Positions 1-37,371 of a stretch of 64,000 nt of DNA are shown here, one piece after another. Below the pieces are notes generated by a model. The model was not told the DNA's origin. It searched no databases and saw nothing but the letters and a program-made list of their open reading frames with translations. The stretch lies in the sequence record OR776998; one strand, written 5' to 3'. Positions within the stretch are counted from its first letter, which is position 1. Each line of letters starts with the position of its first letter. Source of the stretch: Escherichia phage YX22. The position numbers and the translations under genes are program-made.

Positions 1-1504
1 CACGGCGCAGCTGCTTGATGTTGTCAACGATTTCGTCGGCCTGCTTGCGCATGGCATCCAGTTCAGCATCCAACACAGCAATGTCAGCAACCAGCTTGTC
101 GTCCTGAGCCTTGTGATCATCGATCAGGACATTGATATCGGCGGTAACTTTGTCCAGTTGATCTAACTTCGACTGTAGTTCCTGGATCTGAGGATTGTAC
201 TCACTCTCAATCCGCGCCTTGGTGTCATCAGACACCAGTTGGGTACATGTTGGGCAAGTCCCCATATCGTGGAAGCGCTTGATGGCCGACTGATGCCCCT
301 CCATTTCAGTCTGGAACTTGATACGGAAGTTCTCACCCTGCTGGCGGCGCTGAATAGCAGCGTTCAGGGTGTCCAGGTTTGTGTTGCGCTCGGTGAGCAG
401 GGTGTTCTTGCGTTCGGCCACTGTAAAGGCGCGGTCACGCAAGACCTGAAGATCATGCTCCGCAGTAGACACTTCGATGCGCTCATAATCGTCAGCCTTG
501 TCCTGCGCGGCGTCCTTCACCGCCTGGATCTTGGCATCAAAGTCTTTCTTGACAGCCTCGATCTCCACCATGGATTCATCATGCAGGCGGCTTTCTACCG
601 TCTTCATTTCCTGGGTGGCTTCAAACTCCACAGCCGTGAGGCGGGTGCGCTCTTCATTCTGGGCGGCGATGTCAGCGTCTAGGGAAGTCAGGGCTTCCTG
701 TTGCTGTACAAGGATATCGGCCGACTGCTGTTGGATAAGGGCATTGGACCGCTCTATCTGCTGTAGCTGCTTCTTCTTGTTGGTGCGGTCAACAACCTTC
801 AACGCACATTCATTCGCTATCGTGTCCAGCTTTTCGTTCGCTTTCTTGATGGCAGCCTTGACATCTTCGTTCATCAGGCTGAAGAAGCCCAAGTCCCAGA
901 TAGTCTCCACCATGGCGCGGCGGTCGGCTGTGTACATCTCCGTGAACGGAATGAACTTCTCTTTGCCCAGCACCAGAGAGTTCTCAAACATCTTCTGGTC
1001 CACGCCGATGAGGTTCACGATGTACTTGTTCATGTCGGCTTTGGCTGCTTCGTTATCGATCTGCAACCACTTGCCGTCCACCATCTGGTAGACTTCAACA
1101 AAGTCAGGTTTAATGCCACGGCGAACCTTCCATTCGCTACCACGGCAGGCAAACTCCACCTCACCCACACATTCCTTGCGGCTCTGTGAGTTAACCAGAC
1201 CTGCCTTCTTCTCCTTCTTGCTGTATGTGTCGTTGTACAGTACGAAAAACAGCAGCCATACCAGCATCGTGGATTTACCCGCGCCGTTGTCATCAGACGT
1301 AACAAGGGTGGCCGGGTTGCGCTGATAATCAATCTCCATGAACTGATTGCCGATGGAGCGGAAGTTCTTGGCGCGGCCTTTGCGGAAGGTCAGTTTGTGT
1401 GTAACAACGTTACGCACTTCAAATGGGACTTCAACCTCGACCGGGGCGTCGGCTTCCTTCAAAAGATTACCAAATTTGGTCAAGATATCTGTGCTCTGAG
1501 TCAT
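1..1504 (-). CDS. 46: gp46-like recombination endonuclease ATPase subunit (SbcC/Rad50 family), N-terminal part; gene runs off the window start
   Basis: Own translation from ATG at 1502-1504 on minus strand: MTQSTDILTKFGNLLKEADAPVEVEVPFEVRNVV...TSDDNGAGKSTMLV (Walker A), then Q/E/L-rich coiled coil. No stop before position 1, so absent from the ORF track. Lies 2 nt downstream of the gp47 stop. Confidence 0.8.
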   Translation of the reverse strand, partial: MTQSTDILTKFGNLLKEADAPVEVEVPFEVRNVVTHKLTFRKGRAKNFRSIGNQFMEIDYQRNPATLVTSDDNGAGKSTMLVWLLFFVLYNDTYSKKEKKAGLVNSQSRKECVGEVEFACRGSEWKVRRGIKPDFVEVYQMVDGKWLQIDNEAAKADMNKYIVNLIGVDQKMFENSLVLGKEKFIPFTEMYTADRRAMVETIWDLGFFSLMNEDVKAAIKKANEKLDTIANECALKVVDRTNKKKQLQQIERSNALIQQQSADILVQQQEALTSLDADIAAQNEERTRLTAVEFEATQEMKTVESRLHDESMVEIEAVKKDFDAKIQAVKDAAQDKADDYERIEVSTAEHDLQVLRDRAFTVAERKNTLLTERNTNLDTLNAAIQRRQQGENFRIKFQTEMEGHQSAIKRFHDMGTCPTCTQLVSDDTKARIESEYNPQIQELQSKLDQLDKVTADINVLIDDHKAQDDKLVADIAVLDAELDAMRKQADEIVDNIKQLRR

Positions 1505-1505
1505 G

Positions 1506-2621
1506 TTATGCATCCAGTTTGTTCAGGCGTTGTTGGGCAGCATTATAGAAGTGCTCTGCCAGTTTACAGACGTTGTCGGGGCGCTGAATGTTGTTCCCGG
1601 CGCGGATATCCTTCTTCAGGACTTCCACCGCATCGGTCGCCACCATCTCTTCGGTGACCTCAACCTTCTCGGCAGCAACAGTAATCGTCCGGTCGATGAA
1701 GTTGTAGTCAATGCACTTACAGCGCTTCATGGCATCATAGAACTTTTCATAATGCTTAGCATTGTCACGGTTCTGTACAATAACCTTAACAATTTGCCCT
1801 TCAATACCCAAGCCTGTGTTCAACCATTCCGGGTCGATCCAATTACCTTCTTCATCAGAGGACAACTTGGTGTAATCATATTCCACATAGCGGAACAGCG
1901 TCTGGTGCTCGGCGTTCGGGATAAAGATCTCACCACCACGCATGTCGTCCACATAGAAGCCACGGTTAGTGCCGTCTTTGTAGTCTTCCCAGTTCAGGTG
2001 ATATGGAGTCCCAATATATTGAATGTTACCTTCCATCGAACGGGTATGGAAATGGCCCGTGTCGACCCTGGTAAACTTGGAAAGCAGAGCAACGTCGATC
2101 TGACCGTGATCACAAGTAGAAGACTGGTACATTTTGAACCCCGCCAGCTCCAGATGCGCAAAACAGTACTCGGCGTCTGTATCTTGTATCGCTTTAATAG
2201 ACGCATCATAGTTCTCCTTGTTGATCCAAGGCAGCAGCAGAGTCTTGACACCCTCGATCATCACTTCGGTCGGTTCGCTGTAATAGCAGTACACATCCGG
2301 GTCGAGTTCGTTCAGGTAGGATGGCCAGTTGATGCGGTTGGACTCTTCCAGGGTGATGTCATGGTTGCCCACGATGCCATTCCACTTGATACCAGCCGCT
2401 TTCAACGCAGGGGTGAGTTCATCCTTCAGCCAGTCTTTGTCGCGCCCGTACATGAATTTGCGGACATCAAACGTATCACCGAACTGCCAGACCTCTTTGA
2501 TATCAGAGTCGGCAAGTTCAGGAATGAAATAATTGATGAGATAGTTCTTGATGAAGTCGCGAACGTATCGAGAACCATTACGGCTCCCGATATGCAGATC
2601 GCCAATTTTAGCAATCGCCAT
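1506..2621 (-). CDS. 47: gp47-like recombination nuclease subunit (Mre11/SbcD calcineurin-like phosphoesterase)
   Basis: 371-aa ORF with phosphoesterase motifs GDLHIG, GDTFD, GNHD and GHFH; ATG start; order 55-47-46 as in T4. Confidence 0.9.
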   Translation of the reverse strand: MAIAKIGDLHIGSRNGSRYVRDFIKNYLINYFIPELADSDIKEVWQFGDTFDVRKFMYGRDKDWLKDELTPALKAAGIKWNGIVGNHDITLEESNRINWPSYLNELDPDVYCYYSEPTEVMIEGVKTLLLPWINKENYDASIKAIQDTDAEYCFAHLELAGFKMYQSSTCDHGQIDVALLSKFTRVDTGHFHTRSMEGNIQYIGTPYHLNWEDYKDGTNRGFYVDDMRGGEIFIPNAEHQTLFRYVEYDYTKLSSDEEGNWIDPEWLNTGLGIEGQIVKVIVQNRDNAKHYEKFYDAMKRCKCIDYNFIDRTITVAAEKVEVTEEMVATDAVEVLKKDIRAGNNIQRPDNVCKLAEHFYNAAQQRLNKLDA

Positions 2622-3399
2622 TGTTCTTTTTCTCCCGTTCTTCTAATCTTTGTTTGAGGGCTTCCCAATCTGGTTCCATCGCACAGATATCATCTTCCAG
2701 ATTGAATTGGGTTTTGCCGAAGTCTTGATCTGAATTGTCTTCGGCCTGCGCTGTTACCGTATTCTTAGCCTGCGCCATGTATTGAAGTATGCCTTTCGCA
2801 ATCTTTTTATTCGATTCTGCGAGACGAGCTGCCTCCACCTTCTCTCGCTCCTTCTGCCTTTGAGCGTCCTTTTTGTTCTCAAAGTTGCCGATACGTTCAC
2901 GGAAGTCCATGCCAATTCCTGTAGCATCAACAAAGACCTCTTGTTGGAAGTCGGGATCGTCTGCCAGGCCTGCGAACCCACCCGCCTCTTCAAATGAGCG
3001 CAATTTAATGTACGTGTGCTCTTCTTCGATATTCAGTTTACGAGCGAATGATCGATCAGCACACATGGTCACCCAAGAGAAGAAGTTGATCTTCCCTTTC
3101 TTTCCAATGTGTTCGACGTCAAATGTGTGGAGGTAACGCAGGATGTTGACGATTGCTTCAGAGACCATGTCTTCACGGAAGGGATAATCGCGATAGTTGT
3201 AGCGGGTACTCATCTTGGTGATGATGCGCTGGACCTGCAGAGCAACATAGTTGGGGATCTTTGGAAGCCTGGTGCCCTCAGCAAGTGCTTTCTTGCGAGC
3301 AGGGATCCAATCACGAAGGATACTAATGACACGCTCGTTGTCTTCGTCCGTGAAATATTTGACGACATTCTCCCCTCTGTCCACGAAGTTCATTCCCAT
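2608..3399 (-). CDS. 55: gp55-like late-transcription sigma factor
   Basis: Segment ITKMSTRYNYRDYPFREDMVSEAIVNILRYLHTFD matches the T4 gp55 core pattern (RFNFSGY...FD) recalled from memory; position upstream of 47/46; GAGG about 9 nt upstream of the ATG. Confidence 0.7.
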   Translation of the reverse strand: MGMNFVDRGENVVKYFTDEDNERVISILRDWIPARKKALAEGTRLPKIPNYVALQVQRIITKMSTRYNYRDYPFREDMVSEAIVNILRYLHTFDVEHIGKKGKINFFSWVTMCADRSFARKLNIEEEHTYIKLRSFEEAGGFAGLADDPDFQQEVFVDATGIGMDFRERIGNFENKKDAQRQKEREKVEAARLAESNKKIAKGILQYMAQAKNTVTAQAEDNSDQDFGKTQFNLEDDICAMEPDWEALKQRLEEREKKNNGDC

Positions 3400-3410
3400 T
3401 ATGATAGTCC

Positions 3411-3938
3411 TCAGATACCGATAAATTCATCAAAAGATCCAACAACCTTCTTCACCGAGATCTTGTCATTCTCAATCAGGAAGTTGCTGTCGTTTTTGGC
3501 TGCTGTAGCCCAGTCATCGGCAAGTTCGTTGCCTTCGTGTCCCGCATGACCCTTAACCCATTTTAGTTCAACATCACAAATTGAACAAACGAGATCATAG
3601 ATTCTGAACAGATCTTTGATGAGTTCAACGTTCTTTTCTGGGAAACCCTGATACTCCCACTTCGTTCGCCATTCGGTGACACTCTTGATGGCATATTGGC
3701 TGTCAGACCAAATTGTTGCCTTTGGTATTCTGCGCTCACCCTTTCCTGAGAATGCCCACAGTAGCTTCAATGCGTTGGTCACACCCAACAACTCGGCGAT
3801 ATTGTTAGTGGACGGGGGAGGTAGATGACCGAAGAACACCTTCCATTGCATACCCGTTATTGGCCTGATGACAAATGCCCAGCCTGCGGCCTGGTTGGTC
3901 TTCGGGTTAGAACCCCCGTCAGAATAAATTTCTATCAT
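3411..3938 (-). CDS. Ribonuclease HI (RNase H type 1 fold)
   Basis: Internal ATG at 3938 gives MIEIYSDGGS...; motifs SDGGS, NNIAELLGV, SDSQYA and WVKGHAGHEGNELADDWA closely match E. coli RNase HI (TDGS, TDSQYV, WVKGHAGHPENERCDELA). The upstream part of the 207-aa track ORF is probably not translated. Confidence 0.85.
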   Translation of the reverse strand: MIEIYSDGGSNPKTNQAAGWAFVIRPITGMQWKVFFGHLPPPSTNNIAELLGVTNALKLLWAFSGKGERRIPKATIWSDSQYAIKSVTEWRTKWEYQGFPEKNVELIKDLFRIYDLVCSICDVELKWVKGHAGHEGNELADDWATAAKNDSNFLIENDKISVKKVVGSFDEFIGI

Positions 3939-3940
3939 GA

Positions 3941-3952
3941 TATAAATATCCC
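3941..3952 (+). promoter_or_regulatory. Late-promoter-like element TATAAATATCCC on plus strand
   Basis: Exact T4 late core TATAAATA followed by CCC, about 32 nt upstream of the plus-strand ATG at 3984 (RBS AGAGGAA). Confidence 0.5.
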
Positions 3953-3983
3953 AAACTGGTTTTATAGAAAGAGGAATGAAACT

Positions 3984-4751
3984 ATGGCACCCCGCGCATA
4001 TCGTTTCAGTCTCACCGCCCCGCAGATTGAGCAATTGCTCCTCTCTATCTATGATGCTATCAAGTCAGAAGATATCATCTATGATTATGCTGCAGGTGGG
4101 ACTGCTGGACAAGTCGCAGCAGCTTCTGCTGTCAAGAACATGTGGTTGAAGCTCAACGAGATGGTGACAGGCCAAGGTCTCAAAGATGCCATCAACGATG
4201 CAGAAGACAGCAACGTGTTCACCGACTATTATAAGTCTTTACTGGATCGCGAAGGCTGGAAATTTATTGGATCTCCAGCAGATGAACTTCAGCGAGGCGA
4301 CATCGATACCTCGAACTTCAAAGGTGGTGAGGTCATTCTACTTCAGAAGAACGCTTCAGGCAACCCAGAATTCCAATACTGGAAGCGAACCCCTGTTGCT
4401 GGGGGTGATCCTACCTTTGCATGGGCTTCGGTCTATGAAGGGAACTCTAATGATTCCAGCATAGAGATTCCCGTGGTTGGCACCAGCGTACTCAAGGACA
4501 TCCCCAAGGCACTCTTCCATATGATCGAGTTCAGAGTGCATGTCTACGATGAGACACTGGGTCATTGGCAAGACACCGACGGGAAGGTGGGGTATCGTGG
4601 CGAGGATCTGATCTACAGTGTATACAACCATATTCAGACCAAACCTCTCGCCACCATTGACTTCAGCCAAGATACGGACAATATGACGGTTTCTGTGACG
4701 TCGTTGGAACCGAATGTCAAGTGCCATCTGTCCTTCGTTGCGGGTTACTAA
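3984..4751 (+). CDS. Hypothetical protein, probably late-expressed (possible virion protein)
   Basis: Internal ATG at 3984 (MAPRAYRFSLTAPQIEQ...) preceded by AGAGGAA and the late-promoter-like element. Protein-like composition, while the N-terminal extension of the track ORF is antisense to the RNase HI gene. Lone plus-strand gene in a minus-strand block. Confidence 0.55.
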   Translation: MAPRAYRFSLTAPQIEQLLLSIYDAIKSEDIIYDYAAGGTAGQVAAASAVKNMWLKLNEMVTGQGLKDAINDAEDSNVFTDYYKSLLDREGWKFIGSPADELQRGDIDTSNFKGGEVILLQKNASGNPEFQYWKRTPVAGGDPTFAWASVYEGNSNDSSIEIPVVGTSVLKDIPKALFHMIEFRVHVYDETLGHWQDTDGKVGYRGEDLIYSVYNHIQTKPLATIDFSQDTDNMTVSVTSLEPNVKCHLSFVAGY

Positions 4752-6466
4752 ACCTCAAACACGGCATCAGTGAACCAAGCGGGGAAGAACTCTGGGTTGC
4801 GCATCATCAGTGATTCAAAAGAAGAATCAAGGATGTACGTCGCAGCCCAGTCATTCACGCCCCTGACCGAACGCCCACACATCTGAACGATACGCAGTAC
4901 CGCCATCCTGAAGTACGCCGATGGGTCCACACTGTTGACGTGGGCCACCAGAGGATCACCAAGGTAATCATATGGCACCTTGATCAAGATCTGAAATCGA
5001 CTATAATCGCCTTTGAAGTCATACCCCTCTTCCATGGACGGACTGGCGATGACACAAGGTGTCTTCGTCCTGAACGCGTGTTCCATGATGTCCATCAGAG
5101 CCTTACGAGTACGAGGAACGTGAATCATATTCCGGTACTTACTGAACTTTTGTAGAGCCAGGGCGCGGTCATAACTGACTGTGTGAATGATGCCAGACTG
5201 CCCAGGGTGGAACGCGATAATTTCATCCACGTATTCAGCCAGCTTCTTCATCTCGTAGTCACCCATGTTCGCTGTCATCTTCATGATGGGCATGTAGTTG
5301 ACTTTCCGGTTCTCAATCGGGATAGGGTTGCCGATCTGTATCTTGTGGTACTCACCCTCGCGGATACCCAGTGACCGGGCGTACGAGTCAATCCCGCAAA
5401 TGGTAGCCGACATGTGAACGTGGTAGTCACCCTTGCGGAACAGGCCGAACTGGGATACATCAGAGGCGATGACAGGCTTGAACTGAATCATACCCTTGTC
5501 CTTCTCCTGTACGATGAAAGTGCTGGCGTTGGTCTGCCCCATGATACCACAGTAGTCGCTGAGGTTGTGAAGAGTATCAATAATATCAGACAGCTTCATC
5601 ACCTGGGCTTCAGTCAGGCGCTCGTCCTCTACCAGTTCCTCAAGAGTTTCCAACAGGGCTTCAACCTTGCCGTGCAGTTCATCAAATATCGCATGCATCT
5701 CACCAGACAGGGAATACAGCTTGCCCAATTCATAGTTATCTGTGCGGATGATGATATCCTTGATGGTCTCCACGATAGGCACTCCCTCGGGGATCGTAAG
5801 CAACCCTTCCACAGCCTTTATGTTGTATTCCATGATAGTATGCTCTAGGAGCGTAGAGGGCATCTTATGACACTCGTCAAGGATCAGCATATCGGCACGG
5901 TTTTCCGGCTTCATACAAATCGTCGTACACATCTCCACCATCATGGCGGCGTTGGTGCAGCGCAGGGAGGAGACGTCGGTCCACTGTCTACGCGCCTGAA
6001 CATATGGGCAACGATTCTTACTACAGTGGCCATCACGGCATGCCATACGGCACTGAATGGCGTTGTAGTATAGGTCGGGACTGATGTGGCAACGATAGTT
6101 CTTCTTGCCCTTCAGGATGTCTATCGCCACGGCTTTCTCTGCTGCATACTGATCCTGTAAACCTTTGGTCGGCGTCGTGATAGACGTGCGGAACTGACCA
6201 TACGGGTTGTGCTCAAGAACCAAATGGCGAAGCACGTTATGGATGGTAGTGCCGATGAGGGATTTACCTACACCAGTCGGAGCCTCGATGATCACGTGTT
6301 TGAATTTCTTATTCACAAGGGCATCGATGGCTTCAACGATGCATTCCATCTGGCCGGGGTTGGCGGTGTCATACGGGAAGAACTCAGTGGCAAGAGATTT
6401 GATGCGGTCTATGCTGACTGGTCCGACGCCGTCAAGCGCCTTGGTATATTGGTTGAATGCTGTCAC
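4748..6466 (-). CDS. DinG/XPD (Rad3)-family SF2 helicase with Fe-S cluster domain
   Basis: 572 aa; Walker A IIEAPTGVGKS; DEAH-like box ILDECH; four Cys in CHISPD...QCRMACRDGHCSKNRCPY typical of the XPD/DinG 4Fe-4S insert. Start codon is GTG at 6464-6466 preceded by strong SD AGGAGGA. Confidence 0.85.
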   Translation of the reverse strand: MTAFNQYTKALDGVGPVSIDRIKSLATEFFPYDTANPGQMECIVEAIDALVNKKFKHVIIEAPTGVGKSLIGTTIHNVLRHLVLEHNPYGQFRTSITTPTKGLQDQYAAEKAVAIDILKGKKNYRCHISPDLYYNAIQCRMACRDGHCSKNRCPYVQARRQWTDVSSLRCTNAAMMVEMCTTICMKPENRADMLILDECHKMPSTLLEHTIMEYNIKAVEGLLTIPEGVPIVETIKDIIIRTDNYELGKLYSLSGEMHAIFDELHGKVEALLETLEELVEDERLTEAQVMKLSDIIDTLHNLSDYCGIMGQTNASTFIVQEKDKGMIQFKPVIASDVSQFGLFRKGDYHVHMSATICGIDSYARSLGIREGEYHKIQIGNPIPIENRKVNYMPIMKMTANMGDYEMKKLAEYVDEIIAFHPGQSGIIHTVSYDRALALQKFSKYRNMIHVPRTRKALMDIMEHAFRTKTPCVIASPSMEEGYDFKGDYSRFQILIKVPYDYLGDPLVAHVNSVDPSAYFRMAVLRIVQMCGRSVRGVNDWAATYILDSSFESLMMRNPEFFPAWFTDAVFEV

Positions 6467-6516
6467 TTTCTTCCTCCTATGGGATTCGCCTTTAGTTTAA
6501 CCGATTCCCAGGAACG

Positions 6517-6552
6517 AAAAAGCCGGAGTACAATGCTCCGGCTTTCTCTTTT
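6517..6552. terminator. Bidirectional rho-independent terminator hairpin
   Basis: AGCCGGAG-tacaatg-CTCCGGCT stem-loop flanked by A-run upstream and T-run downstream; sits between the DinG start region and the HU gene 3' end. Confidence 0.6.
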
Positions 6553-6595
6553 GCCATGCCCTGTATTGCAGAGCCTGGCCGCGCGTCAGATAGAA

Positions 6596-6874
6596 TTACT
6601 TGCCGTTGGCAGCGTTCTTCAGACCTTCGCCCACTTTGAATTTCACAACGTTTTTCGCCGCGATCTGAATGGTCTGGCCGTTCAGAGGGTTGCGACCTTC
6701 ACGCGCTTCTTGGTGTTTCACTTCGAATGCACCGAAGCCGACCAGCTGTACAGATGCGCCTGCAGCAACTGCAGTTTTAACACCATCGATAAAGGATGCC
6801 ACTACTTTCTCCGCTTCGCCTTTGGTGATATTCTGGGTCGAAGCAATGTGGGCAACAAATTCAGTACGATTCAT
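6596..6874 (-). CDS. HU/IHF-family histone-like DNA-binding protein
   Basis: 92 aa, MNRTEFVAHIASTQNITKGEAEKVV...GFGAFEV...RNPLNGQTIQIAAKNVVKFKVGEGLK; canonical HU arm and fold signature; GGAG 9 nt upstream of ATG. Confidence 0.9.
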   Translation of the reverse strand: MNRTEFVAHIASTQNITKGEAEKVVASFIDGVKTAVAAGASVQLVGFGAFEVKHQEAREGRNPLNGQTIQIAAKNVVKFKVGEGLKNAANGK

Positions 6875-6967
6875 CTGGATTTCTCCGTTGAGTTAATGTT
6901 TACTTTCATGTTCACTACAAGAGGACTACATCTTACCTAACAAAACATATTGAATAAAGCGAAATTA

Positions 6968-7216
6968 TTAGCCTTTCGCCACGTCTTCAGTCGTCATCGT
7001 GCCATAACATCCACAGCGTTCACAAATCACTCTGACGCAAGGCTTAAAAGTCTGAATATTAGTCACAGGAACGTTCACCGCCTTTGAAGAAACTTGCATT
7101 TCGCGGACTTCAACCCGTTGTTCGGCCAGGCGCTCATCGTCCAAGAAGGTGATCGTCTTGTGAGGACAACGCATTGACGATTCACCAACCCAGATTATTG
7201 CCATGTTGGGACTCAT
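6968..7216 (-). CDS. Hypothetical small protein with Cys cluster (possible zinc ribbon)
   Basis: 82 aa ORF, ATG start, CxxC-like C-terminal cysteines (CVRVICERCGC); stop overlaps the upstream gene by 1 nt. Confidence 0.4.
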   Translation of the reverse strand: MSPNMAIIWVGESSMRCPHKTITFLDDERLAEQRVEVREMQVSSKAVNVPVTNIQTFKPCVRVICERCGCYGTMTTEDVAKG

Positions 7217-7491
7217 TATTTGACCTCCGATTTGGAGATTAACAATTCCATCTCCGGGCGACCAATGACAGTCTCAACTTTGTCTTCTTCAACCATCATT
7301 TCATTCAGAAGATCGTACCCCAGGACTTGTACACCAAAAGACTTTTTATTCAGTTCTGCCTCAATATCGAGAACTCGCTGAACCGTCAGGCCACCGGAAG
7401 AGAACGGGACCGGATAGAAAGCAGAACACACTTGCGTGCTCCCATTTACGCTGTAACGAACCAGCAAGACATCACACCATACACCAGCCAT
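7216..7491 (-). CDS. Hypothetical protein
   Basis: 91 aa ORF, ATG start, tightly packed in the minus-strand operon. Confidence 0.4.
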   Translation of the reverse strand: MAGVWCDVLLVRYSVNGSTQVCSAFYPVPFSSGGLTVQRVLDIEAELNKKSFGVQVLGYDLLNEMMVEEDKVETVIGRPEMELLISKSEVK

Positions 7492-7492
7492 G

Positions 7493-8155
7493 TCACACCT
7501 CCACCGCGTGAGACTTCAGAAGTTCATCAATCTCTTTCTGTCCCATGTATGAGAACGGGGTGCGCTGGTAGAACGCCCAGAGTACTAACTGGACAACAGC
7601 ACGGGAACGGGTTTCGGCCGTCATCACCAGGCCACTGAAATGAGGAGACTCAGCTGTCCATTGTATCTCTTCGCCCAGGTCTTGATTACAGGTCACCGAG
7701 ATGCGGAACTTGTTGCACAGATTGTCGACCTCTTTGTACGCATCGGTAGACACACGAAGTTGTTCCGCATGTGCCCACGGAGTTGTGACGATTCTTTCAC
7801 CCATCACTTTATCAGAGATAAACCAATCAATACATTCGGTAAACTCACTAAAATGGTCGATACGATAAATGCAGTCTCCCCCTTCCATAGAACGCATGGC
7901 ATGATAGCGAGCGTCGATTTCGTTGTTGTGCATCGCGTTGAAGTCGATGAACACGCGACGCGCCAGCACAACATCTTCTGGTTGAAGTGCCAGGAAATCG
8001 TTCAGGCGGCTATAATGGAGGATATTGGAACCGTCGTGGCCACGTGTGCAATATGCGTAATAGCTACCGATACGGGCGTGGGCAATATAAGACAACGGGG
8101 CGAAGAATAATCCGTCAGGATCAGGACCGACGATAATAGAATAAAGTTTTTCCAT
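7493..8155 (-). CDS. Hypothetical protein
   Basis: Internal ATG at 8155 (MEKLYSIIVGPDPDG...) preceded by GAGTGACTATATC; 220 aa; no recognisable motif. Confidence 0.5.
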   Translation of the reverse strand: MEKLYSIIVGPDPDGLFFAPLSYIAHARIGSYYAYCTRGHDGSNILHYSRLNDFLALQPEDVVLARRVFIDFNAMHNNEIDARYHAMRSMEGGDCIYRIDHFSEFTECIDWFISDKVMGERIVTTPWAHAEQLRVSTDAYKEVDNLCNKFRISVTCNQDLGEEIQWTAESPHFSGLVMTAETRSRAVVQLVLWAFYQRTPFSYMGQKEIDELLKSHAVEV

Positions 8156-8211
8156 GATATAGTCACTCAAATGAAAGGGCAGCTTTATGATAAGCCGCCC
8201 GAGGTTATTGA

Positions 8212-9078
8212 TTATTGGAAATCGCCAACATACATGTTCAGCTTGTCGTCCCAATTCAGAACGACACGGATCGTTCCAGTATCTTCTGGGAAGGTCAGTT
8301 TGTCACACATGGCGCGATTAACATAAGTCCCGCTCTGGTTGACGTTGTAGTCCTTGCCTTGCATGATACCAAAACGCTTGAAGTCGCGAGTGACCATCAT
8401 GTTCAGAGTTGTCCAAGGGATTGTATCGCGCAGGGCTTTGCACAGGACGATCTTGCCATCCGACCTGAACGACACAAACAGCTCGTTGGCGACACGACGG
8501 CGAGTAGGCGGTTCAAGTTCACGCAGGGAAATGAATTGTGAATTCTTTACCTTTTCTGCCAGCGCCTGTACTTCTGCTGGATCCGGCTTGAACGGCTCCA
8601 CTGAAGAGTCAGACTTCATCACAACGTCACCCTTGCGCTTCTCAACCAATTGCTCCACAGCCTTTTGACTCACGGGAGGGAGGTATTTGGACTTAGGAAC
8701 AACCGCTGGCTTGATGACAGGGCTTGCATCTGGTTTCGCCTTTGGAGTACTCCGAGCCGCACGCAGCTTTTCCTGGGCTTCCAGAATGCGCTCTTGACGA
8801 GAAAGCGGAGCCTTTGGGGTGATCTTCGTACTGAAGTCAGAAACGCCGACCCAGTCACCCTGGTCGTTGCGCTTGGCGACCAGGGTCAGTTTGTGGATGA
8901 TACCCTGAAGTTTGCTCTCACGTAAGTTGTCGGCATACCAGAACTTCGCACCCATCTCGAACTTCTCGGCGAAGATCACGCGAGCGTCTTCGTGTACCAA
9001 CATAACTTTGGCTGCGTTGGGGGCAAAAGTCTTATTCTTTTCGATAATCGCCGCAGCGATTGTTTTGGTCAGGAGCAT
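8212..9078 (-). CDS. Hypothetical protein
   Basis: Track ORF starts at GTG (9081); adjacent ATG at 9078 (MLLTKTIAAA...) with AAGGA upstream; about 288 aa; K/P-rich central linker. Confidence 0.5.
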   Translation of the reverse strand: MLLTKTIAAAIIEKNKTFAPNAAKVMLVHEDARVIFAEKFEMGAKFWYADNLRESKLQGIIHKLTLVAKRNDQGDWVGVSDFSTKITPKAPLSRQERILEAQEKLRAARSTPKAKPDASPVIKPAVVPKSKYLPPVSQKAVEQLVEKRKGDVVMKSDSSVEPFKPDPAEVQALAEKVKNSQFISLRELEPPTRRRVANELFVSFRSDGKIVLCKALRDTIPWTTLNMMVTRDFKRFGIMQGKDYNVNQSGTYVNRAMCDKLTFPEDTGTIRVVLNWDDKLNMYVGDFQ

Positions 9079-9117
9079 CACAGTGTATTCCTTCAGTTCA
9101 CAATGTAGGGCTAAATT

Positions 9118-9444
9118 TTAACCCGAAACTTTATTTTGAAATCCGACAAAGTCCTGGGCAATTCCCCGGCAATACATCAGGTCTTTCTTCGTTTGTGGAC
9201 TGTTGTCAGCCGCAGTCAGCATCATGGGAAGATCCAGCGCATTCTCTATCTGATCAACACTGAACAGATCAAGGCGCTTCAGCTCTCCCTCGAAGTCAGA
9301 CAGGAGGATAGATGTGTCTTTGTCATCTGGGTGGAACTGCTGATACGTCTCCATCCATGCCACACATGTGTTCAGTTTGGACGGTGGCGCAGCGTTTACA
9401 CACCCGGCTATCAGTACCAACAAGAGCAGGATTTTACATTTCAT
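9118..9444 (-). CDS. Putative lipoprotein
   Basis: ATG at 9444 gives MKCKILLLLVLIAGCVNA: signal peptide with lipobox IAGC; 108 aa. Confidence 0.5.
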   Translation of the reverse strand: MKCKILLLLVLIAGCVNAAPPSKLNTCVAWMETYQQFHPDDKDTSILLSDFEGELKRLDLFSVDQIENALDLPMMLTAADNSPQTKKDLMYCRGIAQDFVGFQNKVSG

Positions 9445-10130
9445 CACTCGTTCTCCTTCATCATATTGTCGCAGTCAACACGAGTCTGCTGGAGTTCGCG
9501 CGACATGCGGGGATCATCAAGGTTCACGCTCAGATTCGTGGCCAGGTCTTTCAGACCGTTCTGAACCCTGTCTTCAAAGTAATAATCGTTCTCAACCAGC
9601 CAGGCTCTGAGACCGAGAGCGCGAGTACGCCATTCCTTCTTCAGGACGCGATCAGAGGTCTGCGTAGCGCTGTATTCGAATACTTTGATGCACTGGTTGC
9701 CATCGTTGATAAGGTTCAGGTGGCGGCGACCAACCTGCACACCCTTCTGTAATGCCGGAGAAGGGAGCGAACGGCACTGTCTTACGGTCATTCGGCCTTG
9801 GGTGCCCATTCGGCCAGTCATGATCAAATCGCCAGCCTCCATGCCGCCTCGATTAAATTCATCGTCATTGAGGTAGCCCTTGAGGTTATAGGCTCCCTGT
9901 TTGTAACGGTTGAACTCAATTCCGGCATTGACGACAGCAGTGGAGACGTTGCCTGTGTTCCAGAGTTCAGCGAAGTTCTCTATGGAACCAGACTTGTCGA
10001 TGGCAACCGCCTGAGAGAACCCAGCACAATAGGAAAGGTCGGACCACAGTTTATCACCTGTGGAGTTCAGCTTGGCAGCGGCGGGTAATGCCAGACCAGC
10101 CAGCACAACCCCGAGGATTAAACGTTTCAT
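9444..10130 (-). CDS. Putative secreted/periplasmic protein
   Basis: Internal ATG at 10130 gives MKRLILGVVLAGLALPAAA (cleavable signal peptide); 228 aa; 1-nt stop/start overlap with the downstream lipoprotein gene. Confidence 0.5.
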   Translation of the reverse strand: MKRLILGVVLAGLALPAAAKLNSTGDKLWSDLSYCAGFSQAVAIDKSGSIENFAELWNTGNVSTAVVNAGIEFNRYKQGAYNLKGYLNDDEFNRGGMEAGDLIMTGRMGTQGRMTVRQCRSLPSPALQKGVQVGRRHLNLINDGNQCIKVFEYSATQTSDRVLKKEWRTRALGLRAWLVENDYYFEDRVQNGLKDLATNLSVNLDDPRMSRELQQTRVDCDNMMKENE

Positions 10131-10209: not shown

Positions 10210-10659
10210 TCAGAAACGGGTGTCGCTGACCGTTCTGTATCGCACACCCTGAAACTGTTTAGCGAGTTTAACAAATTCCATCGCTGGCAAATCAACTTTG
10301 TAGACCTTCATGCGCTGTTTGCCGTCCATGTTCAACGCAGCGACAAATCGGTGAGAACCGTCAACAACGTAATTGTCAGAAGACACCCAAACTCGACCCA
10401 TAGGTTTCTTATTTCTGATCTGCTTCATGATCTTCCAGACCTTCATTTTATTGATTTCGTTCTGGGTAAGACGAAGCATTTTGATGGGCACTTGCACAGC
10501 ATCTATGGACACGCCGTTGTCTTCAAGATATTTGTGAAAATCTTCTTGTTTGTCGGCATCGATTTGTGGCATAGAAGAACGAGAAAGCCCGAGGTTCCCA
10601 ACAGGAATCCTCAGGCCGTTAATGATGTTCAACCAGTCAATAAAAGATGTAAGGAACAT
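10210..10659 (-). CDS. ParB-like nuclease (ParB/Srx N-terminal domain) protein
   Basis: 149 aa; VQVPIKMLRLTQNEIN...YVVDGSHRFVAA resembles the ParB N-terminal domain signature (DGxHR); GAGG 7 nt upstream of ATG. Confidence 0.45.
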   Translation of the reverse strand: MFLTSFIDWLNIINGLRIPVGNLGLSRSSMPQIDADKQEDFHKYLEDNGVSIDAVQVPIKMLRLTQNEINKMKVWKIMKQIRNKKPMGRVWVSSDNYVVDGSHRFVAALNMDGKQRMKVYKVDLPAMEFVKLAKQFQGVRYRTVSDTRF

Positions 10660-11890: not shown

Positions 11891-11927
11891 CCCCTAAAAG
11901 TAAAAATCCCCAACGTTTTGTTGGGGA
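11891..11927 (-). terminator. Rho-independent terminator downstream of the ACP-like gene
   Basis: On the minus strand: stem TCCCCAAC/GTTGGGGA with 5-nt loop followed by TTTTTACTTTT. Confidence 0.6.
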
Positions 11928-11933
11928 CTTCTG

Positions 11934-12257
11934 TTATTTGCGCAGGGCAACCACGAGTTCAGCGAGTTCACCCATGGTCGGGTCATCACCTTTACTACCC
12001 AGCCAACCGTCGTCGATTTCGACCTGAAACTCTTCTTCTAGTTCCATTACGATTTCGATGGCATCCAGTTCGTCACCGCCGAGGTCTTTCTTGGTACGGA
12101 GGCCAGCCAGCTTGTCCAGGGCGTCCTCGTTCTGAGATGCCACGTCGTCCAGCAATTTGCGCTTGTCATCGTCACGCCACAGATCCAAGTTCAGATTGTC
12201 AGTGGCGTACTGAGCCAGATGACGCATGACTTCAACATATGTTGGTTTGCTGCTCAT
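11934..12257 (-). CDS. Acyl carrier protein-like protein with Ser-to-Glu substitution at the phosphopantetheine attachment site
   Basis: 107 aa; C-terminal 55 aa align with E. coli AcpP helix II: phage DLGGDELDAIEIVMELEEEFQVEIDD versus AcpP [26 protein letters not shown]. Codon checked by hand: gac gaa ctg gat = D E L D. SD GGGAGAAG 6 nt upstream of ATG. Confidence 0.65.
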   Translation of the reverse strand: MSSKPTYVEVMRHLAQYATDNLNLDLWRDDDKRKLLDDVASQNEDALDKLAGLRTKKDLGGDELDAIEIVMELEEEFQVEIDDGWLGSKGDDPTMGELAELVVALRK

Positions 12258-12299
12258 GCTACTTCTCCCAAAGAAAGGCGGGTTGCCCCGCCCGTTGGA

Positions 12300-14501
12300 T
12301 TATATTTTGATTTCTTTCTCTGTCAGTTCGGCAGTGACCTTGTACTTCACCCCATCCACTTCAACTTCCATGGTGGACTCTTCCAGGTCGAGGTCGGTGA
12401 ACCAGCCATGGCCAGCAACGATACCATACACCACTTTAGACAGTGTCTTGTTCAGGGCGCGGACTTCGGTGATGGCCGCCTTGGCAGCAGCGTCGATCCA
12501 GTTTTCGATCAGATGTTTCTGTAAGGATTCAGGCACGGCAGTGATCATAGGAGACTTCACGAATGCTTCGTACTCCTTCAGCGCATTGGCGATGAACAAG
12601 TCACCAGCATTGAGTTTCTTGTTCTCGGCAATCTTCTTCTGTACCGCTGCGATAGACGGTAGAGATGAAGCGCCAGCGATCTTCACGTTCAGCTCACGGC
12701 TCATGTAGAAGTCGGTAGACTCTTTGGTCTCAGTCTTCGGTGAGAAGCCGTAATCGCGGATGCCGTAGGAGGACAGGAACTCGGCCGCCTCAGCGCCGTA
12801 CTGTACTGCCAAGCCTTTGGCGTTACCCTTACCAACCAGGGCGTCTCGATAGAACTTCAGCACCTTCTGCTTGCCTTTCAGGGCTTCCAGACGGACATTA
12901 TCCGCAAAGAACTGAGCAGCACTGATGTTCTTGACCATGGCGCGGTTGACCAGCGGTACGCTTTCCAGGTTCAGGACAAACACTTCCGGACCACCAAACA
13001 CGTGGACACCCATTTCGATCAGCTTATGCACGACTTCGATATCAGCCTTGAACGGCAGAGTCTTCACGTTAATGATACCGTCTTTGACGATGGTGTAGTT
13101 GCGCCACTGGAAAGTATCCAGTTCTTCAGGCAGACCGAACTTCTTCTGTGCGAATTCAGGCACAGCCACAGTACCGTGTTGAATTGTACGCACACTGATG
13201 TTCGGGCGCTCGGAGTTATAGACCAAATCGCTGATTGGCACAACACCCAGGTCGTTGGTAGGTTCGAACGTCGGGTTCCACTCTTCGTGTTCTGCCAGCT
13301 TGAGAGCCAGTGCTTTACGCTCTTCTTTGGACTGAGCGTTCGCGATCTGTTCTGCCAGCTTGTCTTCGGTGTCGTCGGTTTTCTGCACAGTACCGCGCCC
13401 GATGCTCTTATAGGAGAACATCGGATGCTTGGTAGCAACAGGCACACCAGCTTCAGCCAGGTACGTCAGCACATCAACGACGGTGGTCGCATCTTCAGCC
13501 GGAACCAGGTCATAGTCAATACCGTCAACGCCGCGCAGCTGGTCGTCAACAATCGCCTGAACCAGATCGTTCTTGATGTTGGAGTAGTCCTGCTTGGTGA
13601 AGCAGTTGCTGTACTGTTTGATGAAGCGAACGTCGCCCGTTTTCTTCAGTGCAGCCCACACCAGGTCCGCGTCCATGATGTGTACGCCGTAGAACGCCAG
13701 CACGTATGCCGCCTGGATGTCCGCCAGCGCATCAAGCTGGTCGATCATGTTAGGGTTTACAACCCACAGCTTGGTGACGCTCTCAGGGATGCTCACATAG
13801 CCGACCGGGTGAGAGTCATCGTCCTGCACCGCCAGTACTGTTGCCACACCGTTTTCGACGTAGATGGCATGGGTGTAGATGACTGGGACATCAACTTTCA
13901 CCTTCGGCACTGATGACTTCAGCACGTTTTCCAGTTCGGTCTGGTATTCGGTCTGACCTTCAGCAAACACGTGGGTCGCACCGGAGCGCTCAGACATCAG
14001 AGCTAGCAGTTCGCGGTTACAGTACCAGCCATATTCGATAAATGTAATGTTATCGAAAGCAAATGGCAGGGTCTCAGCAACCAGTAGAATTTCGTTGGTA
14101 CGCCAGCAGTTGTCATACCCGTCAGTCATGAACGCCAGGTTGTTGACATAGCCAGGTTTCTTCAGGTCACGCGCAGTATCCATCGCCAGTTTCAATGGCT
14201 CAACGAAACCAGTACAGCCGGATGGTTGCAGGAAACGGTCGATCAGTTTGTTCAGCTCGCTCAGGTCAGACGCAGCACTAACCTGGCGGCCAGCGAACAC
14301 AGTACCAAAGTCGCCTTTGGAGGAGAAATACAGAACGCTCACAGTGTCTTCCGGCTTCACCAGGGATGGCAGGTTCTCCTTCAGGTGCTTGCGGACTTCA
14401 GGGAGCGCACGGTACATAGAGCCGGAAATGTCTACAACGATTACATGGTTGGACGGAGCAGCAGTCGCAACCGCATTCTTAAATTCTAATGATTCAATCA
14501 T
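12300..14501 (-). CDS. von Willebrand factor A (vWA/MIDAS) domain protein, 733 aa
   Basis: ATG at 14501 (MIESLEFKNAV...); N-terminal vWA signature VIVVDISGSM (DxSxS MIDAS), G/T-containing loop, FMTDGYDN; roughly 500 aa C-terminal region of unknown fold. Confidence 0.7.
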   Translation of the reverse strand: MIESLEFKNAVATAAPSNHVIVVDISGSMYRALPEVRKHLKENLPSLVKPEDTVSVLYFSSKGDFGTVFAGRQVSAASDLSELNKLIDRFLQPSGCTGFVEPLKLAMDTARDLKKPGYVNNLAFMTDGYDNCWRTNEILLVAETLPFAFDNITFIEYGWYCNRELLALMSERSGATHVFAEGQTEYQTELENVLKSSVPKVKVDVPVIYTHAIYVENGVATVLAVQDDDSHPVGYVSIPESVTKLWVVNPNMIDQLDALADIQAAYVLAFYGVHIMDADLVWAALKKTGDVRFIKQYSNCFTKQDYSNIKNDLVQAIVDDQLRGVDGIDYDLVPAEDATTVVDVLTYLAEAGVPVATKHPMFSYKSIGRGTVQKTDDTEDKLAEQIANAQSKEERKALALKLAEHEEWNPTFEPTNDLGVVPISDLVYNSERPNISVRTIQHGTVAVPEFAQKKFGLPEELDTFQWRNYTIVKDGIINVKTLPFKADIEVVHKLIEMGVHVFGGPEVFVLNLESVPLVNRAMVKNISAAQFFADNVRLEALKGKQKVLKFYRDALVGKGNAKGLAVQYGAEAAEFLSSYGIRDYGFSPKTETKESTDFYMSRELNVKIAGASSLPSIAAVQKKIAENKKLNAGDLFIANALKEYEAFVKSPMITAVPESLQKHLIENWIDAAAKAAITEVRALNKTLSKVVYGIVAGHGWFTDLDLEESTMEVEVDGVKYKVTAELTEKEIKI

Positions 14502-14709
14502 TGTTCTCTTCGCCTTGTGCGTAAGGGTTAAGTTCAGACTCATCAGCGGCTTCGATGCGCGTCTTTACAGAGTCCAGCATATTGTTGATAAACTCACGAG
14601 ACTGCTCCAGCTGAGCCAAGAGCACATCCTTTGGAGCATAGTTCTGAATGCAAGCCGGAATACTTTCAGACGTCGCCTTCAGGTCGGTAAAACATTCTTT
14701 CAGTATCAT
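14494..14709 (-). CDS. Hypothetical small acidic protein
   Basis: 71 aa ORF with ATG start; first gene of the three-gene cassette; its stop lies 2 nt before the vWA start. Confidence 0.4.
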   Translation of the reverse strand: MILKECFTDLKATSESIPACIQNYAPKDVLLAQLEQSREFINNMLDSVKTRIEAADESELNPYAQGEENND

Positions 14710-14774
14710 TTGATCTCACTTAACAGAGACGACGCCCTGTTGGGATTTAAAGCGGTCTTCACAGACATCAGGTT

Positions 14775-14802
14775 TCCCTCAAAACAGGGGAGTCTCCTCC
14801 CC
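14775..14802 (-). terminator. Hairpin terminator immediately downstream of the NAMPT-like gene
   Basis: On the minus strand: GGGGAG-GAGA-CTCCCC stem-loop followed by TGTTTTGAGG; separates the NAD operon from the vWA/ACP-like cassette. Confidence 0.55.
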
Positions 14803-14810
14803 TTCGGTTA

Positions 14811-17675: not shown

Positions 17676-17981
17676 TCACTTAAACGAGTCAACGATGGAT
17701 GTAAGAATTTCGGGGGTGGGTTTGGCGTCTTGTGGTTCACGGAAACCCACCTTTGCGATGCGGCCCAAGATATTGTACACTTCGCGCGGAAGGGTGTCTA
17801 CGACCGTGTCCGACATGAACGCCACGTCTTCTTGGATGGCGTTGTATTCGGCCAGTTTAGCCAGTTCTGATCCTACCAGGGACTTCAGCTTTTGCAATGG
17901 GTCGTTGCAATAGTTGAGACGGTTGCAGTTGGTGAGCGCCTGAGTTAGATTCTCAAACGCTTCTTGTATTTCCTTTGACAT
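17676..17981 (-). CDS. Hypothetical protein
   Basis: Internal ATG at 17981 (MSKEIQEAFENL...), 101 aa. Confidence 0.4.
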   Translation of the reverse strand: MSKEIQEAFENLTQALTNCNRLNYCNDPLQKLKSLVGSELAKLAEYNAIQEDVAFMSDTVVDTLPREVYNILGRIAKVGFREPQDAKPTPEILTSIVDSFK

Positions 17982-18363
17982 TGATATGTGCCTCGTATTG
18001 TTGACAGACAACAACTACTTTACGGCACATGTCGATATCGAACAAGCCAATATGACACTCTTTCTTAGTGATGCCCAGCTTATGCGCCAGCCAACTATAA
18101 GCGTCGCTCCTGCTCCTCTCTCCGCTTTTCCACAATGGGTCAAACGATCTATGGGCTTTTTGCTTCTCGGCACGGAGAGCGGCATTCGCCATCCTTCCCA
18201 GAGGCTGCCTGCCGTCGCCATGGGCATGGCAACCGACACGGGCATCACACGGGGTGCAAACCCAGAACCTCAGATTGCGGAGGTCAGGGCGATGAGGGTA
18301 GAGAACATCACCACCGACGAATTCGGCTGGGAGGCCACAGTAATCACATATAACAGGTTTCAT
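17953..18363 (-). CDS. Hypothetical zinc-finger protein
   Basis: Internal ATG at 18363 (MKPVICDYCG...WVCTPCDARVGCHAHG...): two CxxC pairs plus His; 136 aa. Confidence 0.45.
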   Translation of the reverse strand: MKPVICDYCGLPAEFVGGDVLYPHRPDLRNLRFWVCTPCDARVGCHAHGDGRQPLGRMANAALRAEKQKAHRSFDPLWKSGERSRSDAYSWLAHKLGITKKECHIGLFDIDMCRKVVVVCQQYEAHINVKGNTRSV

Positions 18364-18370
18364 ATTCTTT

Positions 18371-18399
18371 GTCCAAAAGAAACCCCGCACATGGCGGGG
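18371..18399 (-). terminator. Rho-independent terminator
   Basis: Stem CCCCGC/GCGGGG with 5-nt loop; T-run on the minus strand downstream (TTTCTTTTGG). Confidence 0.55.
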
Positions 18400-34344: not shown

Positions 34345-34383
34345 TAATGATACCTTTCGCCCCGTTATTGAAATGTTCTTTTA
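34345..34383 (-). promoter_or_regulatory. Repeated promoter-like element (copy 2)
   Basis: Minus strand TTCAATAACGGGGCGAAAGGTATCATTACC, about 45 nt upstream of the ATG at 34317. Confidence 0.4.
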
Positions 34384-35853: not shown

Positions 35854-35900
35854 AATTATTCTCCTCCATATGGTATCTAGTATAACCTGTTCGATAATAT

Positions 35901-35930
35901 GAACAAATAAAAACCCCGCCGAAGCGGGGT
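35901..35930 (-). terminator. Rho-independent terminator after gp23
   Basis: Minus strand: ACCCCGC-ttcg-GCGGGGT followed by TTTTATTTG. Confidence 0.7.
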
Positions 35931-35957
35931 TTGTCAGGGTTAAGGACAACTATTCGA

Positions 35958-37280: not shown

Positions 37281-37371
37281 GATGGTCATTCCTTACATTG
37301 ATATTCAGTTAAGTTGAAATTACTTAGTAGTTCAAAATCAAGCCCCCTTTCGAGGGCTGTGGCTGCTAAAA

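Follow-up and report, generated by a model that had tools for sequence, protein, structure and literature searches.

Several proteins join a vWA domain to a β-sandwich, including ArnB of Sulfolobus (PDB 8s05 and 5a8j), 4fx5, ITIH heavy chains, and the trunk of Sec23/24. In integrin I domains, and in the anthrax receptor CMG2 with protective antigen, a Glu or Asp of the ligand completes the coordination at the metal ion-dependent adhesion site (MIDAS). Acyl carrier proteins (ACPs), on the other side, dock on their partner proteins with the acidic recognition helix II. In this study, we found elements of both in a group of three genes of Escherichia phage YX22 (sequence record OR776998), of which a stretch of 64,000 nucleotides, referred to here as the window, was analysed. 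The three genes, referred to as the trio, encode a small acidic protein, a large vWA protein with a complete MIDAS, and an ACP-like protein with Glu in place of the cofactor serine. The best explanation, to which we give a probability of roughly 0.4, is that the vWA protein serves as a MIDAS adaptor present in minor amounts in the virion, with the non-carrier ACP-like protein as its partner in Ackermannviridae.

The trio had been described, in a prediction made from the letters of the window, as three co-oriented minus-strand genes, and both the open reading frames (ORFs) and their phage-family matches agree. The genes lie at 14709-14494 (71 amino acids (aa), isoelectric point (pI) 4.3; phrog_20065, E 1e-11), 14501-12300 (733 aa, 81 kDa; phrog_2426, E 0 over the full length), and 12257-11934 (107 aa, pI 4.3; phrog_4154, E 6e-57). 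Each of the three ORFs matches a phrog family, and all of them are real genes. The trio region is 97% identical to that of Escherichia phage AV101 and matches 180 Ackermannviridae records (Agtrevirus, Limestonevirus, Kuttervirus, and Taipeivirus), and the window can be assigned by sequence to an Agtrevirus-like Ackermannviridae genome. The remainder of the window contains replication genes followed by a head and tail module, and the trio is located ~20 kb away from the structural genes. An alternative in-frame ATG at 14543 would give a vWA protein of 747 aa. The start at 14501 is most likely the right one, since the homologues are 733-734 aa long and begin with MIESL, and since 14501 overlaps the stop of the small gene. 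This overlap is 8 nt long (ATGATTGA) and suggests translational coupling of the small gene and the vWA gene.

The vWA protein has a Rossmann-like α/β vWA fold (aa 1-198; 13908-14501, minus strand) with a complete DxSxS...T...D motif, consisting of D24-x-S26-x-S28 (codons 14432-14418), T97, and D127. These five residues align on the ArnB motif and do not vary among 53 sequences, the most distant of them at 32% identity, which bears out the earlier assignment of a MIDAS vWA domain to this protein. A β-sandwich (aa ~199-249; 13755-13907, minus strand) packs directly after the vWA domain, as in the core of ArnB and Sec23/24. The rest of the protein is an α/β module (aa 250-733; 12303-13754, minus strand) with invariant RPN (432-434), DG (474-475), G-x4-GF (580-586), D-x-Y (597-599), and WF (700-701) motifs. 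The AlphaFold2 model of the vWA protein has a predicted local distance difference test score of 87.5. Although this C-terminal module of ~480 aa is confidently modelled, a fold search found no analogue among PDB representatives, and a PDB sequence search with the vWA protein gave nothing better than E 0.15. The earlier view that a large part of the protein is of unknown fold thus holds. The vWA protein shares just 11-17% sequence identity with ArnB, 4fx5, ITIH, and Sec23/24, and, unlike all of them, it carries the additional C-terminal module and occurs in virions. It also has no zinc ribbon or zinc finger, no counterpart of the helical and gelsolin domains of Sec23/24, and no FHA partner corresponding to ArnA. 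Full homology to Sec23/24 was considered and rejected, as the match is limited to the trunk and the β-sandwich.

Homologues of the vWA protein are numerous. A word-indexed search found 185 clusters at 90% identity, and tblastn found homologues in 503 phage records. By the C-terminal module alone, the family comprises 1,026 representative clusters at 50% identity, almost all of which are proteins of 680-820 aa in which the module follows an N-terminal region of ~250-300 aa, that is, one architecture. Homologues with 47-49% identity occur in T4-like Straboviridae and similar large phages (RB16, phiEap-3, PMBT1, JC221, and others), and tblastn found further ones in Shewanella and Alishewanella phages and more distant ones in Rhizobium phages. 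The phrog_2426 family is a very large, widespread, and uncharacterised phage family. In line with the original prediction, which knew of no phage module of this kind, literature searches found no functional study of the trio proteins, just two proteomics tables. A full-length homologue with 33% identity was also found at 6001-8169 of a bacterial-looking contig of 294 kb (ENA ERZ28567121, scaffold_9). Its neighbours encode ankyrin-repeat proteins, MBOAT, GNAT, ClpB, a T2SSE ATPase, and RNase II/R, with no obvious prophage around it, and an identical homologue is present on a contig of 1.36 Mb. The source of scaffold_9 may be an intracellular or symbiotic bacterium.

The two proteomics tables place the vWA protein in phage particles. 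In purified virions of LIMEstone1, the orthologue ORF108 (81 kDa) was detected with 6 unique peptides and 11.4% coverage, similar to the tape measure protein with 7 peptides and to gp27, the baseplate hub, with 6 (PMC3296691). A virion preparation of Sajous1 gave a single peptide of the vWA protein (gp185) and a single peptide of the ACP-like protein (PMC10892097). The vWA protein is a minor virion component in LIMEstone1, and its detection by mass spectrometry favours a part in virion structure, assembly, or delivery over one in a cytoplasmic anti-defence system. Two observations from the same tables weigh against a virion adaptor made of both proteins, since many non-structural proteins were likewise present in the preparation from Sajous1 (PMC10892097), and since the ACP-like protein went undetected in LIMEstone1 virions (PMC3296691). 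In every lineage examined, the neighbours of the vWA gene are early or DNA-metabolism genes, and the structural module lies elsewhere.

T4 has virion proteins, namely Alt and the internal proteins, whose genes lie outside the structural module and which are injected together with the DNA. The vWA protein resembles these in that its gene lies among early or metabolic genes while its product is found in the virion. It shows, however, no sequence or fold similarity to them, its N-terminus is part of the vWA fold, and no obvious T4-type capsid-targeting or protease-cleavage motif was seen there by eye. Alternatively, the vWA protein may be a non-structural assembly cochaperone for the baseplate and tailspike apparatus, comparable to the vWA partners of MoxR AAA+ ATPases (NorQ/NorD and RavA/ViaA). 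Its presence in virions would then be carry-over, and the ACP-like and small proteins would be accessories. Viral examples of MoxR-vWA pairs likewise include a vWA/MIDAS protein with a possible role in virion assembly; such pairs have been proposed to act as chaperones of virion assembly in jumbo phages, and in Acidianus two-tailed virus they are reportedly required for tail assembly (PMC7824862). The location of the vWA gene outside the structural module and the low peptide counts in Sajous1 would be expected of such a cochaperone. In contrast to the MoxR-vWA pairs, no MoxR or other AAA+ gene is present in or beside the trio, either in the window or at 12 related loci, and the number of peptides in LIMEstone1, equal or close to those of gp27 and the tape measure protein, also weighs against carry-over. 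We consider this explanation quite unlikely.

The ACP-like protein matches the phosphopantetheine-binding profile PF00550 with 26.0 bits (cut-off 20.8) and, like E. coli AcpP, it is small and acidic. ACPs from the PDB match it at E ~6e-6, and the sequence DLGGDELDAIE aligns on their cofactor-serine segment, so that the position of the phosphopantetheine serine is taken by Glu63 (codon 12071-12069). A profile search separated the phage family (55 clusters, E ≤1e-12) from ordinary ACPs (E 6e-7 or weaker). The cofactor position of the 55 cluster representatives is Glu in 48 and Asp in 6, with a gap in the remaining one and Ser in none, whereas Ser is present in 64/64 of the next hits, which are true ACPs. 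The earlier claim that this protein has no cofactor serine is thereby confirmed and can be extended to the whole family. The loop and helix II (DLGGDELDAIEIVMELEEEF) are identical at 17 of 28 positions to what we take to be the corresponding segment of E. coli AcpP, while both terminal thirds are divergent. A family-specific motif, W-x-G-x3-DDPT-x-GE, is present. Three subtypes with 24-28% mutual identity can be distinguished, of 107 aa (window), 90 aa (Miltonvirus 3M_097, with 'FDELD'), and 99 aa (Bue1, with 'MDELD'), and all three retain D-[E/D]-L-D and an acidic helix II. The ORF of the 99-aa subtype, at 7316-7615 of the locus in Erwinia phage vB_EamM-Bue1 (MG973030), lies 42 nt after the vWA gene and is absent from the gene calls.

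As judged from these alignments, phosphopantetheinylation at the canonical site is impossible in the ACP-like protein, while the docking surface of ACPs is retained. It cannot carry acyl groups, and its only remaining role would be that of a module for binding other proteins. The family is restricted to Ackermannviridae. A function of the protein as acyl or aminoacyl carrier in a phage biosynthetic pathway can practically be dismissed. The GenBank and PHROG label 'acyl carrier protein' and the score above the Pfam threshold speak for a carrier, but Glu or Asp always replaces the attachment serine (54/54 family representatives with a residue there), and no synthase, transferase, or phosphopantetheinyl transferase gene is found in the neighbourhood. 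The label 'acyl carrier protein' or 'auxiliary metabolic gene' given to this family in PHROGs and GenBank is misleading. A serine-less ACP homologue has a precedent in the mitochondrial ACP of Plasmodium, which binds Isd11-Nfs1 (PMC8547962). Both proteins have lost the cofactor serine, and the role as a binding subunit has been shown for the Plasmodium protein. The phage protein, however, belongs to a different lineage, and no LYR-type partner was identified in the phage. The substitution in the Plasmodium protein is presumably Phe and not an acidic residue.

The vWA and ACP-like genes are adjacent in Agtrevirus, Limestonevirus, Kuttervirus, Taipeivirus, and Erwinia phage Bue1; in the window, AV101, LIMEstone1, CECAV_050, Vi01, and Bue1, the ACP-like gene follows the vWA gene directly. 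In Miltonvirus, the ACP-like gene is located ~0.9 kb downstream of the vWA gene. This proximity persists while the ACP-like protein diverges to ~25% identity, and the numbers of records found by tblastn are almost the same for the two proteins, ~269 for vWA (at least 60% identity) and ~268 for ACP-like. In the scenario we favour, the vWA protein would be a metal-dependent adaptor whose MIDAS holds a partner by an acidic side chain, either while the virion is being assembled or once the protein has been delivered into the host. The ACP-like protein would be its dedicated partner in Ackermannviridae, as a cap, a chaperone, or a co-delivered subunit, with the invariant carboxylate at the old serine position supplying the sixth MIDAS ligand. 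The translationally coupled small acidic protein may be a third accessory, and the conserved hairpin between the vWA and ACP-like genes (T2, described below) may tune their relative expression. Such a contact would resemble those of integrin I domains and CMG2, given that the phage MIDAS is perfect and invariant and that the proposed partner offers an invariant Glu or Asp. It differs from them in that the pairing with Glu63 is a proposed one, and in that homologues from phages with no ACP-like gene keep the same MIDAS.

Several observations weigh against a dedicated pair. The order of genes is strongly conserved throughout Ackermannviridae (PMC3296691), and adjacency alone is therefore weak evidence of a functional link; indeed, the next downstream gene (79 aa) also appears, by eye, to be syntenic in Bue1. 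In addition, three small genes lie between the vWA and ACP-like genes in Miltonvirus, and the two genes are separated by the terminator-like hairpin T2. More than 200 phage records (RB16-like, Slopekvirus-like T4-type, Shewanella, Alishewanella, and Rhizobium phages) contain a vWA protein with an intact MIDAS and no ACP-like gene nearby, and tblastn detected no ACP-like gene anywhere in these records. Several metagenome contigs and the bacterial-looking contig likewise have an intact MIDAS and no ACP-like gene close to the vWA gene, and an ACP-like ORF was found near the vWA gene in 0/10 loci scanned outside Ackermannviridae. An intact MIDAS in phages with no ACP-like gene implies that the MIDAS must have another primary ligand. 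No conserved alternative partner is found next to the vWA gene outside Ackermannviridae, and no fusion of ACP-like and vWA proteins of the Rosetta-stone type was seen among 161 retrieved proteins. A neighbourhood survey for vWA and ACP-like genes, proposed with the original prediction, therefore gives a divided answer, since co-occurrence holds in Ackermannviridae, down to ~25% ACP-like identity, but the vWA family is usually found with no ACP-like neighbour.

These observations would be accommodated if the two proteins were independent neighbours, the vWA protein being an unrelated virion or assembly protein and the ACP-like protein a host-directed decoy of holo-ACP, in which Glu or Asp mimics the phosphodiester of Ser36. 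Helix II would then dock on host clients of ACP (fatty-acid and lipid A enzymes, AcpS, MukB, SpoT, and IscS) and sequester or inhibit them. The closeness of helix II to that of host AcpP (17 of 28 residues identical to the presumed AcpP segment, as above) in an otherwise divergent protein is consistent with a decoy, as are the strict conservation of the acidic substitution, the success of the vWA family elsewhere with no ACP-like gene, the separation of the two genes by T2 and by the Miltonvirus insertion, and the failure to detect the ACP-like protein in LIMEstone1 virions (PMC3296691). The Plasmodium protein with Isd11 provides the precedent for a serine-less ACP as a pure binding subunit (PMC8547962). 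A decoy would, however, leave the lasting proximity to the vWA gene to be explained by backbone synteny alone, its host targets are putative, and one ACP-like peptide was present in the Sajous1 virion preparation (PMC10892097). We hold independent neighbours to be somewhat unlikely. It is also conceivable that the two ideas are combined, with the Glu or Asp of the ACP-like protein plugging the MIDAS of the virion vWA protein and the packaged or delivered holo-ACP mimic engaging, by the recognition helix universal among ACPs, the ACP-client machinery of the host (for example, lipid synthesis, MukBEF, or SpoT) at the start of infection. We regard this version as distinctly improbable; if true, complexes for host takeover or anti-defence that are delivered by the virion would gain a new class, based on a protein family whose fold had not been seen before.

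The vWA gene has other neighbours outside Ackermannviridae, which encode DNA ligase, a Dda/Pif1-like helicase, thymidylate synthase, DHFR, dCMP deaminase, Dam, or small proteins of no known function. It is located repeatedly 3' of the DNA ligase or Dda/Pif1-like helicase gene, as in Shewanella phage Thanatos-1 (2591-6154 of the locus) and at two other loci (4-6172 and 136-6070). This setting among ligase, helicase, and nucleotide-metabolism genes (td, frd, dCMP deaminase, and Dam) might hint at a DNA-related role of the vWA protein. No Ku-like fold was found for it.

The original prediction regarded the trio as a host-interaction or anti-defence unit and placed it directly downstream of genes for salvage or reconstitution of nicotinamide adenine dinucleotide (NAD+). 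Profile matches identify these genes as NAMPT (nadV, 16475-14811) and a Prs-like phosphoribosyl pyrophosphate synthetase (17326-16472), and the trio does follow nadV/prs directly in the window, AV101, P46FS4, SKML-39, and the Dickeya phages. The adjacency is absent, however, in Vi01, CECAV_050, 3M, and Bue1. In LIMEstone1, the NAD genes beside the trio look eroded or interrupted, the annotated nadV being just 333 bp with the homing endonuclease F-LimVI nearby (7282-9558 of the locus). A functional tie between the trio and the NAD genes would agree with their adjacency in the first group of phages and with the uncharacterised state of all three proteins, but it is very improbable in view of the second group, of the hairpin (T1) between nadV and the trio, of the presence of the vWA protein in virions (PMC3296691), and of the other neighbours of the vWA gene, none of them an NAD gene, in other lineages. 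Moreover, searches of the trio proteins with PADLOC-DB profiles gave matches at noise level alone (E 0.01 or weaker), and NCBIfam gave nothing relevant. The trio offers no evidence of a new defence-related system. The trio is a vertically inherited core of the Ackermannviridae backbone, syntenic as a block, and neither a mobile cassette nor part of the NAD+ operon.

The claim that the trio is bracketed by terminators has to be divided as well. Hairpins do flank it, T1 at 14777-14803 (minus strand, 3' of nadV; GGGGAGG-AGAC-CUCCCCU then GUUUUG; dG -16.2 kcal/mol, z -2.1) and T3 at 11907-11927 (minus strand, 3' of the ACP-like gene; UCCCCAAC-AAAAC-GUUGGGGA then UUUUUACUUUU; dG -18.4 kcal/mol, z -5.2). 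T3 has a good U tract, and 0/200 shuffles fold as well, which makes it the strongest terminator candidate. T1, which has 4 U only in its tail and was not called by the terminator scan, is a weak candidate for an intrinsic terminator upstream of the trio. Between the vWA and ACP-like genes, however, lies the third hairpin, T2, which the original prediction did not mention (12276-12293, minus strand; GGGCGGG-GCAA-CCCGCCU then UUCUUU; z -3.0), whose stem and U-rich tail are kept in AV101, LIMEstone1, CECAV_050, and Vi01. A discrete cassette of three genes between two terminators is therefore not what we find, given a conserved hairpin inside it and a trio that belongs to the core of the family backbone. 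The authors of the LIMEstone1 genome had annotated putative terminators at positions equivalent to T1, T2, and T3. The terminator scan of the region found 8 hairpins, with 7.6 expected from shuffles and hence no enrichment; what speaks for the hairpins is that they lie between genes and are conserved.

Two further features of the vWA/ACP-like junction were considered and rejected. The vWA stop and the ACP-like start share a frame and are 14 codons apart (window 12258-12302), and the frame is also shared in LIMEstone1 and CECAV_050 according to annotated coordinates. A read-through vWA-ACP fusion was nevertheless rejected, and the shared frame attributed to chance, as the frames differ in Vi01 and Bue1. 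Likewise, a σ70-like match of 11/12 (CTGACA-16-TATAAT, window 12326-12299, minus strand) is present at the 3' end of the vWA gene just before T2. It was rejected as an internal promoter for the ACP-like gene, because TATAAT is made of the last codon and the stop (ATA|TAA), and relatives have ATC|TAA and CTGGCA. The T4-type late promoter TATAAATA has no match near the trio, and 2 matches in the window with 0.9 expected.

Homologues of the 71-aa small protein are found in AV101, LIMEstone1 (as the C-terminus of the 180-aa ORF109), CECAV_050, Vi01, and Miltonvirus (3M_092). The homologue in Vi01 (NC_015296) is a 56-aa ORF at 2577-2747 of the locus, directly upstream of the vWA gene and overlapping it, which was missed by annotation. 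It shares with the small protein of the window the motif P-x-[DE]-V-L-x2-Q-x-E-x2-R-E-F-x3-M-L ... NNDD. LIMEstone1 ORF109 (6697-7239 of the locus) looks like a fusion, in which the N-terminal part resembles the start of the 152-aa upstream gene of Bue1 (4471-4929) and the C-terminal part corresponds to the small-protein motif of ~45 aa. This implies that the gene upstream of vWA is mosaic.

Annotations of the trio genes date back to 2010-2012, and the presence in virions is already in print. Apparently unreported in the searchable literature is the strict change from Ser to Glu or Asp that defines the ACP-like family of Ackermannviridae, together with the size of the vWA family and the absence of a solved analogue for the C-terminal two-thirds of its members. 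With more than 1,000 sequence clusters for which two-thirds of the protein have no counterpart among solved structures, the vWA family represents a considerable gap. The 81-kDa MIDAS protein is carried by Ackermannviridae (Kuttervirus, Agtrevirus, Limestonevirus, and Taipeivirus) and by T4-like phages of the RB16 and Slopekvirus types, phages that are in wide use, or have been proposed, for therapy and biocontrol. The protein is a tractable subject, as a metal-dependent adhesion module associated with virions could plausibly take part in assembly, in host recognition, or in early takeover. The acidic switch in the ACP-like protein would clearly illustrate how a carrier protein can be turned into a binding module, and E63 and the MIDAS residues offer a sharp handle for point mutations.

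Some other genes of the window deserve mention. A homing/HNH endonuclease gene (522 aa, phrog_3339; 34381-35949, minus strand) adjoins the gene for the major head protein (35958-37289). A gene for a DUF3268 zinc-finger protein (17953-18390, minus strand; Pfam E 8.5e-38) is found a few kb upstream of the trio, and Bue1 also has a DUF3268 gene upstream of its vWA gene (2950-3351 of the Bue1 locus), which extends the backbone synteny. Finally, the 149-aa ORF at 10210-10659 (minus strand), which has no match in Pfam, is the positional counterpart of the 450-bp LIMEstone1 ORF101/102. The latter is labelled 'confirmed structural protein', with 5 peptides in the table of the LIMEstone1 paper, and the equivalent in CECAV_050 is labelled 'cytidyltransferase'. 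By this correspondence, the 149-aa ORF would be a further virion protein encoded among non-structural genes.

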